Part shown: positions 6,662 to 7,566 of the stretch, piece by piece
Position numbering within the stretch: the first letter of the stretch is position 1
Layout of the letters: the number at the start of each line of letters is the position of its first letter
From: Terriglobia bacterium
GTDB taxonomy: Bacteria > Acidobacteriota > Terriglobia > 20CM-2-55-15
Reading direction: 5' to 3'
Assembly: GCA_965198225.1 (NCBI GenBank)
Contig: CBDAOY010000006.1
Span: forward strand, 997,713-1,061,712
Length of the DNA stretch: 64,000 nucleotides
Notes under the pieces: model-generated
Databases searched by the model: none
Seen by the model: the letters and a program-made list of their open reading frames with translations, nothing else
What the model was told of the DNA's origin: nothing
Translations under genes and position numbers: made by a program

Positions 6662-7566
6662 GTAGAGTCGAAAGTGGTCGGGCCGATCGGCCCTTCCACC
6701 GTCCGCTCAATCAAACGGCTCGTGCGGTTTTCCCGCAAGCCGCTTTCCTCAGTTGCTCCTCGTTCGGAATTCGCTGTGTGGCGGCAGGTGGCGGCTTCGT
6801 TCGTACCGCGTTTGGGTCTTTCGCTAAGGGAACTATCCAAGTTCACGATATCTCCGCGTTTCCCATCGCTCGCACATTCACGACTGAGTACGGGGACTTC
6901 CCCCTCCAACGGGCCTTTTGGACCCGCCAGCGCCGCTGCTCGAAGCAACGATCCGAGACCTTATGTTTGCCGTCTCGTTCCTGAGTACTATTCCCCGATC
7001 CGATTCCTGACACCGCGTCGGCCGGAATTTCGCTCTCGCTTATATCCGCACCTACCGCGCAGGGCTCTAGGTCGATGTTTGTCTTCTCGGTTGCCCGCCC
7101 TTTCGTCTGCGGGTGCCACATCATCTCGACCTTACCTTCCGCTCGGACGATACCAGGCCTCCCTGGGTCACTCGCGTCTCTTCTCCACCGTGTCGCCCGC
7201 ACACACCTTGGTGCGATGGGGTGGAACCAAATGCGCCTTCGCCCCCATAGTGCGGGCTCGACCATTCCCCATCTTTGGCCGACCGGTTCATCCTCGGGAT
7301 CGCTCCCTTCGATTACGACCCGGTGGTTCTCCTCATGCCCTTCAGACCCCACCTCGCGGTGGGCGCCCTGCCCTCCAAAGTTTCCGTAGGTGGCTCCAGC
7401 TCTGCCTTGTCCGTGTCCGGCTTTCGCCTTCGTGCCCGTTTAGGCATCTGCCATACCTGCCTACACTCCGGCCAGTGAGGCATTACCCCCACTTGTTGGA
7501 TATCGACCCGTGGCCTCGGGCCGAGCGGGACTTTAACCCGCCGGAAACGCGTGCTGCCAGGCACGC
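6662..7566 (-). ncRNA. ORF-less group II intron nested in domain III of the outer intron
   Basis: DV GAAAGCGGCTTGCGGGAAAACCGCACGAGCCGTTTG; 3' end CGACTCTAC; EBS1 ACTATG (7246-7251) complementary to 5' exon CATAGT; removal restores GGAGTCAGATCCGCTCATAGT|ACTCGGAG. Confidence 0.88.

Follow-up and report, generated by a model that had tools for sequence, protein, structure and literature searches.

The window, a stretch of 64,000 nucleotides (nt) from the genome of a Terriglobia bacterium, holds a twintron: a group II intron without an open reading frame (ORF) sits within domain III of a second group II intron, and twintron, outer intron and inner intron are all on the minus strand. The outer intron lies between a cassette-like ORF and a gene for an AbiU2 (HEPN) protein, with a TIR-domain ORF and more inverted core-like sites nearby. 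Coordinates are window positions unless a contig is named, and the features are collected in Table 1. The inner element is very probably an ORF-deleted, non-autonomous mobile group II intron, a member of a lineage that homes to the conserved domain III loop of other group II introns.

Table 1. Positions of the twintron, its parts, its neighbours and its ORF-bearing parents (C5 and C6, contigs of the same genome; RT, reverse transcriptase; EBS1 and IBS1, exon- and intron-binding site 1; aa, amino acids)
Feature	Position	Description
Inner intron	6662..7566 (-)	ORF-less group II intron, 905 nt, GCGUG...CUCUAC
UAUGG...CCUAAA	7438..7457 (-)	Intron nt 110-129; identified by sequence only
EBS1	7246..7251 (-)	ACUAUG, intron nt 316-321, hairpin loop of domain I
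Own domain III loop of inner intron	6983..6992 (-)	AAUAGU|ACUC; from local fold and breaks of nested copies at nt 580|581
ORF-deletion scar	~6768..6771 (-)	In domain IV; from comparison with parent and a divergent RNA-library contig
Domain V of inner intron	6713..6745 (-)	AGC triad, 2-nt bulge, GAAA-type loop; 13 pairs, 2 compensatory (RNAalifold, n=11)
Domain VI of inner intron	6665..6708 (-)	16 pairs, 2 compensatory (RNAalifold, n=11)
Bulged A	6668	7 nt from the 3′ end (...UAC)
Outer intron	8109..5819 (-)	Starts GTGCG, ends CGCGAT
Outer intron, 5′ segment	7567..8109 (-)	GTGCG end, domains I-II, 5′ half of domain III to loop CAUAGU
IBS1 of inner intron	7572-7567	CAUAGU, end of the outer intron's 5′ segment
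Outer intron, 3′ segment	5819..6661 (-)	Rest of domain III (ACUC...), domain IV, domains V and VI
Rfam group-II-D1D4-6 match	8073-7809	Outer intron, 110.9 bits
Rfam Intron_gpII match (domains V and VI)	5894-5819	Outer intron, 42.3 bits, cut-off 40
RT remnant of outer intron	~6500-5922	YADD to end, in domain IV
attC-like site	8110..8199 (-)	Upstream of outer intron; R″ GCCCAAC 8199-8193; start of R′ GTTG 8113-8110
3′ exon of outer intron	5013..5818 (-)	GGC, then cassette gene with AbiU2 (HEPN), ATG at 5804
Cassette-like ORF	8928-9704	TIR-domain protein, defence-type
Cassette-like ORF	5013-5804	AbiU2 (HEPN) protein, defence-type
IS21-type pair	11569-13952	rve / Mu-transposase C-terminal ORF, then IstB ATPase
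Parent intron	C6:343788-345941	2154 nt; open 415-aa frame
Parent intron	C5:501714-503866	2153 nt; open 415-aa frame

The inner intron and its parent

The original prediction, made from the letters of the window, had placed an ORF-less insert of ~905 nt at CATAGT|ACTC, and repeated termini and empty paralogues confirm this twintron to the base. CATAGT (7572-7567) precedes the insert and ACTC (6661-6658) follows it, within domain III of the outer intron. A BLAST search of the window's own genome (G000, 6.4 Mb in nine contigs) with the 905 nt recovered 11 full-length copies (1-905) of 81-100% identity, together with split, duplicated and ORF-bearing forms. The exact 18-nt tag of the 5′ end occurs 20 times in this genome and the 15-nt tag of the 3′ end 21 times; 18 of the 20 upstream flanks end TAGT, the other two ending TAAT and TGGC, and all 21 downstream flanks begin with A. 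Three paralogues of the outer intron, about 90% identical to it, are contiguous across the insertion site, where they read CATACT|ACTC, with a mismatch at -2, against the occupied CATAGT|ACTC. Since the ends of the insert and its flanks have no base in common, the mobile unit cannot be shifted. Once the inner element is removed the outer intron is continuous, with Rfam matches on both sides of the insert and paralogues that run uninterrupted. No ORF with RT similarity was found within the 905 nt, and the window copy shares 98-100% identity with sister copies and with one copy in another genome.

The 5′ end, GCGTG, had been called non-canonical, and it is real: GCGUG matches GUGYG at four of five positions and aligns base for base with the GUGUG or GUGCG of relatives, with no shifted splice site. 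A C at intron position 2 is rare, present in 2 of 65 metagenome members among the matches listed, and judged by the alignment GCGUG is a U2-to-C variant of the canonical 5′ end. Relatives' GUGUG and GCGUG stand at the same distance from GGGUUAAAG, which counts against a shifted splice site. The GTGCG that begins two bases upstream (cataGTGCGtg) was considered as the true 5′ end and ruled out by the empty and nested sites, which fix GCGTG...CTCTAC.

The same region has a pairing potential of its own. Pairing is possible between intron nt 1-6 and 13-18, at 7566-7549 in the window and in the corresponding region of loci L054-L133, and among 45 distinct sequences pair 4:15 is C-G in 24, U·G in 10 and U-A in 7, with covariation at 2:17 too; both variants with C2 carry G at nt 17. 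Covariation extends to a second helix, formed by nt 7-12 and 21-26, and the two helices together would form a pseudoknot sequestering the 5′ splice site.

At the other end of the intron, an RNAalifold consensus of the last ~114 nt from 11 lineage members gives domains V and VI with 29 pairs, four of them with compensatory changes, and the bulged A of domain VI is unpaired in all 11 sequences. Both domain V and domain VI with its bulged A thus have the form expected of a group II intron. The UAUGG...CCUAAA segment resembles the 11-nt tetraloop receptor, and could dock the GAAA loop of domain V. EBS1 forms six Watson-Crick pairs out of six with the CAUAGU that precedes the insert in the window, and a relative in genome G032, 78% identical, has EBS1 CCAAAG beside the flank CUUUGG. 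EBS1 as named in advance (ACTATG) lies at 7251..7246, and the position predicted for the intron's own version of its target (AATAGTACTC, 6992..6983) was accurate. A candidate for EBS2, UCUGA at nt 221-225, is complementary to UC(A/G)GA of the host at -17..-13; the block is also conserved in the Rfam D1D4-3 consensus and relatives' flanks fit it only sometimes, and it was not adopted.

Three copies in the genome carry ~1.25 kb of extra sequence at element nt 796/799. In the two parents of Table 1 the open frame has its putative TTG start at nt 799 and closes with TGA at nt 2044; the third long copy is frameshifted. Outside the ORF the parents are 95-98% identical to the 905-nt form, which lacks parent nt 797-2052. 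This deletion begins near the TTG, ends shortly beyond the TGA and removes hardly anything but the ORF; domain IV is kept to a point 2 nt short of the putative start codon. EBS1, domain V and domain VI of the window copy are unchanged from the ORF-bearing parents. The 415-aa protein has the Pfam domains RVT_1 (2.2e-33) and GIIM (1.2e-19) and no other, so that Pfam gives this RT/maturase no endonuclease domain. Among solved structures it comes closest to group II RTs that likewise lack an endonuclease, 7uim (6.8e-65) and GsI-IIC 6ar1. To judge from this comparison, the 905-nt element arose from an autonomous 2154-nt parent by exact loss of the ORF. The RT-bearing helper that had been postulated thus exists in the same genome, as near-identical ORF-bearing parents; two of these are intact, and together with the clean deletion of the ORF they support the view that the short form would need a maturase in trans.

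Host introns, target loop and EBS1 alleles

In its own genome the inner element is found in seven host intron families of three Rfam types, in itself and at one non-intron site. The commonest host, the window's outer intron and one other family are of type D1D4-6, and types D1D4-2 and D1D4-3 contribute two families each. Host proteins are 31-39% identical to the protein of the inner intron, and there are hosts with intact RT ORFs. In local folds of the reconstituted host sites, four of seven, as well as the inner intron's own site, are built alike, from a basal helix of 6-7 bp and an inner helix with the internal loop AUAGUA between them on the 5′ side and the loop G(G)AAG on the 3′ side; the remaining three folds are of other designs. 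As the folded target lies directly upstream of the ORF-bearing domain IV, it is assigned to domain III, with the insertion point AUAGU|A inside its loop. The single non-intron insertion lies close to the 3′ end of an ORF for a 234-aa membrane protein, in antisense orientation. As a control for chance, ATAGTA was counted in the genome: its 469 sites are empty except for the intron sites and one other, so that a pairing of seven bases is not enough to account for the confinement to introns. The original prediction had described an intron specialist, and the other copies agree with it, as their flanks are related domain III sites and not unrelated sequence, with the one non-intron exception, and relatives from other phyla have the same habit. 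A census of domain III-like sites by a loose regular expression was too unspecific to be of use beyond two host families that were already known.

The relatives come from one genome per species, searched with peptides of the parent protein and not with EBS1. They comprise 19 loci in Terriglobia (94% identity), Desulfobacterales (~80%), NC10, Alphaproteobacteria, Pyrinomonadaceae (65-71%) and Nitrospinota (50-53%). A 5′ junction is visible in 11 of these, and all 11 have EBS1 ACTATG; ten of the flanks end TAGT and one TAGG. Their introns begin GTGTG (seven), GTGCG (two) or GCGTG (two, both in the Terriglobia genome), and a host intron motif adjoins the junction in 8 of the 11, including a fourth type, D1D4-4. 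The inner and the outer family are patchy among the 40 relatives searched, and neither turned up in the three same-genus genomes searched (94-96% complete). A genome of another genus in the same family (G020) carries copies at C9:15698-16602 and C24:1863-3670, one of them self-nested, that are 98-100% identical to the inner intron of the window. The presence of copies in this genome and not in the same-genus genomes suggests recent horizontal transfer.

A metagenome scan with a pattern for the EBS1 hairpin returned at least 120 stretches, and 80 loci were fetched, giving 65 readable junctions. Among the matches listed, 54 of 65 flanks end TAGT and 47 read C[AG]TAGT, and the introns begin GTGCG (43), GTGTG (20), GCGCG (1) or GCGTG (1). 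An Rfam host scan covered 20 of the 32 metagenome loci with at least 600 nt upstream, and in 14 of the 20 a D1D4 motif of a host intron stands on the same strand, at a distance of 100-450 nt upstream. The 63 distinct flanks among the matches listed read C, A/G, U, A, G, U from -6 to -1, in 56-60 of 63 cases (A in 37 and G in 24 at -5). Positions -12..-7 carry at most 0.39 bit, and the sites used by identical copies differ there, which makes conserved EBS2-IBS2 pairing unlikely. At a fixed distance, -21..-13, stands the motif G.AG(U/G)C(R)GA; it may be read by the protein, or may merely be conserved host structure.

Two EBS1 alleles, one base apart, occur in one genome, and that base decides entry into the element's own copies. 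Allele ACUAUG is carried by the window copy, two other short copies, both parents and one G020 copy; its sites are CAUAGU three times, a perfect match, and GAUAGU, CGUAAU and CGUAGU once each, and never the self site. Allele ACUAUU occurs at AAUAGU three times in the window's genome and once in G020, all perfect matches in self-nested copies. Its other sites are GATAGT eight times (seven in the window's genome and locus L034 of G020, with a G·U pair), CGTAGT twice, AGTAGT once and GATGGC once, the last a rearranged flank. The allele thus tracks the -6 base of the flank. Self-nested copies, inserted at AAUAGU|ACUC (nt 580|581), are represented by four 5′ junctions in the window's genome and one in G020; all three of the former with a readable EBS1 carry ACUAUU, and the EBS1 of the fourth is degenerate and unreadable.

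The suggestion that the element avoids insertion into itself holds in part. The window allele ACUAUG mismatches its own loop AAUAGU, whereas the sister allele ACUAUU pairs with it perfectly and self-nests. The own domain III loop was located in 74 of 89 lineage loci (11 were missed by the pattern and four were too short): C[AG]TAGT appears in none of the 74, in 63 the loop contains a non-pair with the intron's own EBS1, and the other 11, UGUAGU, could pair only with two wobbles. The absence of the preferred target from all 74 own loops, set against its frequency in the flanks, supports self-avoidance at the level of the lineage. Read in this way, from sequence comparison, the ACUAUU allele is the exception that shows what the mismatch would prevent.

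Some loci of the commonest host may be nested further. This host apparently begins (GTTGCGCC...) inside domain VI of another intron, with domain V of that intron directly upstream. Such starts are seen at L007:478-560 (C6:839719-839800), C5:812424, C5:760149 and C5:606894, and some of these loci would be at least four introns deep. After the 3′ end of the commonest host, at C6:843512-843630 and C5:818770-818880, a stretch of about 118 nt starts with GTGCG and ends with GTCGACTCTAC, as does the 3′ end of the inner intron; it may be an extremely reduced intron remnant.

Routes of spread and state of the locus

In the proposed mechanism, the host intron would be transcribed first and the parent protein would act in trans on the ORF-less copy. 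Excision would religate the AUAGU|A loop and restore host domain III, leaving the host able to splice; because domain III is restored by the excision, splicing would be sequential. A role for the adenosines of the domain III loop is treated in a section of PMC4476101, which cites Robart 2014. The lariat ribonucleoprotein would then reverse-splice into DNA at C(A/G)UAGU|A by way of EBS1 and the +1 A. No conserved EBS2-IBS2 pairing would take part, because -12..-7 varies among the sites of identical copies; the host motif at -21..-13 would perhaps be read by the protein, and complementary DNA (cDNA) would be primed without an endonuclease.

Several observations weigh against this reading. Splicing and mobility are predictions from sequence. 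In one study, contigs from four metatranscriptome runs contain the element, with allele U at 7246, as well as the parent ORF and the element's junctions with three types of host; presence in an RNA library is by itself no proof of transcription. One RNA-library contig of 325 nt joins 6661 to 7567, an exact skip of 905 nt; on one side, 5 of 122 bases disagree with the window, and at 6499 the contig enters an undeleted RT ORF, so that its source is another copy. The skip may be spliced RNA or an empty site and is counted as no evidence of splicing. Rfam gives no match at curated thresholds on the inner element. In the Infernal-type search suggested earlier, the window copy has no Intron_gpII match at E<=10; its D1D4-3 match reaches 24.6 bits (cut-off 32), and Intron_gpII on one sister copy reaches 33.4 bits (cut-off 40). 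The curated Rfam models may not cover this lineage. No EBS2, EBS3 or intron class has been assigned. In the metagenome set the constancy of EBS1 is there by construction, and the flank was not fixed by the pattern. Within the window's genome, a perfect CATAGT does not ensure occupation: one host family has eight identical copies, and seven of them are empty. Every copy of the commonest host is occupied, and some copies have mixed flanks, 5′ from one host and 3′ from another.

On a wider reading opinion is nearly balanced and tips slightly against: that the element represents an old and widespread hyperparasitic lineage. The domain III loop C(A/G)UAGU|A would be its universal homing site, in at least four structural types and several phyla; the mismatch with its own loop would protect it, the change of EBS1 from G to U would here have ended that protection and begun self-nesting, and invasion would perhaps take place on host intron RNA.

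The state of the window twintron is a separate matter. It may be a fossil, with neither partner splicing and no present function, a possibility to which we give less than even weight and which concerns the locus only, saying nothing on the nature of the element. The RT of the outer intron has been reduced to the part from YADD to the end, in which Pfam recognises RVT_1 positions 148-205 only, plus GIIM. With most of its own RT gone, the outer intron may have reached a dead end in the window twintron. No close full-length helper for it exists in the genome, where the best match is 33% identical, its three paralogues, which align to nt 1-541 of the 5′ segment, are ORF-less by sequence comparison, and no read evidence is tied to the window locus. 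Decay is not what the inner copy suggests, with its near identity to its sisters and to a copy in another genome and its unchanged EBS1, domain V and domain VI, nor what the outer domains V and VI suggest, which still score above the Rfam cut-off. A 9-nt identity between the inner 5′ end and GCGTGCCTG, beside the deletion junction of the outer RT (6497-6489), was dismissed as chance, since the stretch is native RT coding sequence in an undeleted relative.

An unlikely alternative to active homing is that the element no longer homes and spreads inside mobile host introns, the whole twintron retrohoming, and through homologous recombination or gene conversion between its copies. The commonest host, with six 5′ and seven 3′ junctions, has flanks identical over 148-150 nt and no empty copy, as would be expected of such co-propagation, and chimeric flanks and half-deleted nests fit recombination. 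From the identical flanks of this host and the mixed flanks it follows that part of the copy number reflects co-propagation and recombination rather than independent homing. Passive carriage has to be set against at least eight different intron contexts and a non-intron site in one genome, 63 distinct metagenome flanks among the matches listed, and a host family occupied in only one of eight identical copies. An allele that tracks the -6 base of the flank is not expected from hitch-hiking alone. At C4:150750-152385 and C5:889958-891013 the 5′ flank is of D1D4-2 type and the 3′ flank of D1D4-6 type, and such chimeric flanks indicate recombination between inner-intron copies that fused different host introns.

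Invasion at the RNA level, in which the inner lariat enters the single-stranded loop of host RNA and is made DNA by the host's own retrohoming, is improbable: it would suit a target predicted to be a single-stranded internal loop in folded host RNA, the pairing of only ~7 nt while ATAGTA sites elsewhere stand empty, hosts that are retroelements with intact RT ORFs and the full occupancy of the commonest host, yet the insertion antisense to the membrane-protein ORF needs a DNA target, the fixed -21..-13 motif could give specificity at the DNA level, and a host ribozyme with a split domain III is possibly unable to reverse-splice.

If homing to the domain III loop is the habit of the lineage, a motif of the ribozyme core serves as homing site and is present wherever group II introns are. 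Such a site would cost the cell nothing and would be hard to mutate away, because the host intron needs it, and the lineage would be a clear-cut instance of one parasite exploiting another at the RNA level. From twintrons in which domain III is split, a sequential order of splicing is predicted to be obligatory, and they offer bacterial material for ideas on the fragmentation of group II introns. Pipelines that expect contiguous introns miss both partners, and Rfam thresholds miss the inner lineage. Annotation misses outer introns of twintrons according to the relevant part of PMC8919778.

Known nested introns and the surroundings of the twintron

Homing of group II introns into one another is on record for Methanosarcina acetivorans and Thermosynechococcus elongatus, as are nests cut back by recombination and the mobilisation in trans of ORF-less copies, in the portions of PMC4424553 and PMC2882425 drawn on here. 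The M. acetivorans nests (Dai and Zimmerly 2003, via Zimmerly and Semper 2015, PMC4424553, in excerpt) bring ORF-less and RT-bearing relatives together, as here. The same account has multi-layer nests trimmed by recombination and a site that is a perpetual homing target harmless to the cell, again as here. The targets in M. acetivorans are the ORFs of related introns, to go by the title of the original paper, whereas the target here is the conserved domain III ribozyme loop of heterologous types (Rfam D1D4-2, -3, -4 and -6), and the habit is conserved across a lineage in several bacterial phyla. In T. elongatus, where TeI3 lies in TeI4 (Mohr et al. 2010, PMC2882425, in excerpt), ORF-less derivatives are likewise mobilised in trans by the protein of a relative, and the authors name co-mobility and independent mobility as routes. 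The T. elongatus site, as given in that excerpt, is in domain IV between two start codons of a close relative and leaves the host core intact, unlike the insertion here, by which domain III is split, in introns of unrelated classes as well as in the element's own copies.

The twintron of Trichodesmium erythraeum (Pfreundt and Hess 2015, PMC4649490, in excerpt) also has its inner intron in a ribozyme domain, and sequential splicing was both required and shown there. It is a single locus in a conserved gene, with the inner intron in domain I and both introns ORF-bearing, and no target-specialised lineage is evident from the part of that paper used here. Subgroup IIC, with its attC-associated members, as characterised in parts of PMC12584367 and PMC4424553, shares with the inner intron a protein without an endonuclease domain, short EBS-IBS pairing, no conserved IBS2 and specialisation on a recurrent genomic motif, and the solved RTs closest to the parent protein belong to IIC. 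Where IIC introns insert just downstream of a hairpin, that of a terminator or of attC, the element here enters a loop within a helix-loop-helix of an intron. The 5′ strand of a helix ends 6 nt before the insertion point, and the strand that pairs with it follows downstream. IIC ribozymes are small, with a reduced domain I; at ~900 nt without an ORF (905 nt in the window), the inner intron is about twice their size, and it is not filed under IIC. A literature search found no lineage in which a conserved EBS1 targets a ribozyme loop conserved among heterologous classes of intron; older papers might bear on it. Specialised lineages are reportedly described by Michel et al. in 2007 and Simon et al. 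in 2008, and such a lineage could be among them.

The outer intron occupies what we take to be an attC site, an assignment that presumes the consensus RYYYAAC / GTTRRRY. GTTG, at the end of its 5′ exon, is completed to R′ by the GGC of the 3′ exon, and the joined exons GTTG|GGC are the exact complement of GCCCAAC, 80 nt upstream. Its three paralogues, at C6:296057, C8:78626 and C5:570489, are inserted at GTTA|GAT, and all four copies of this outer family lie inside the GTTR|RRY core of attC-like sites, in the same orientation as the cassette ORFs. The outer-family ribozyme measures ~815 nt without its ORF; the ribozymes of known attC-associated IIC introns are far smaller.

The cassette gene 3′ of the outer intron matches Pfam HEPN_AbiU2 (E = 8.5e-22), and this defence-type gene and its TIR-domain counterpart sit in what looks like an integron array. 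The original prediction had counted four nested layers, from element and cassette array to intron within intron, a count that can be followed in part, through attC-like inverted core sites and defence-type cassette genes. Farther along the window, an IS21-type pair lies beside cassette-like ORFs (Table 1).

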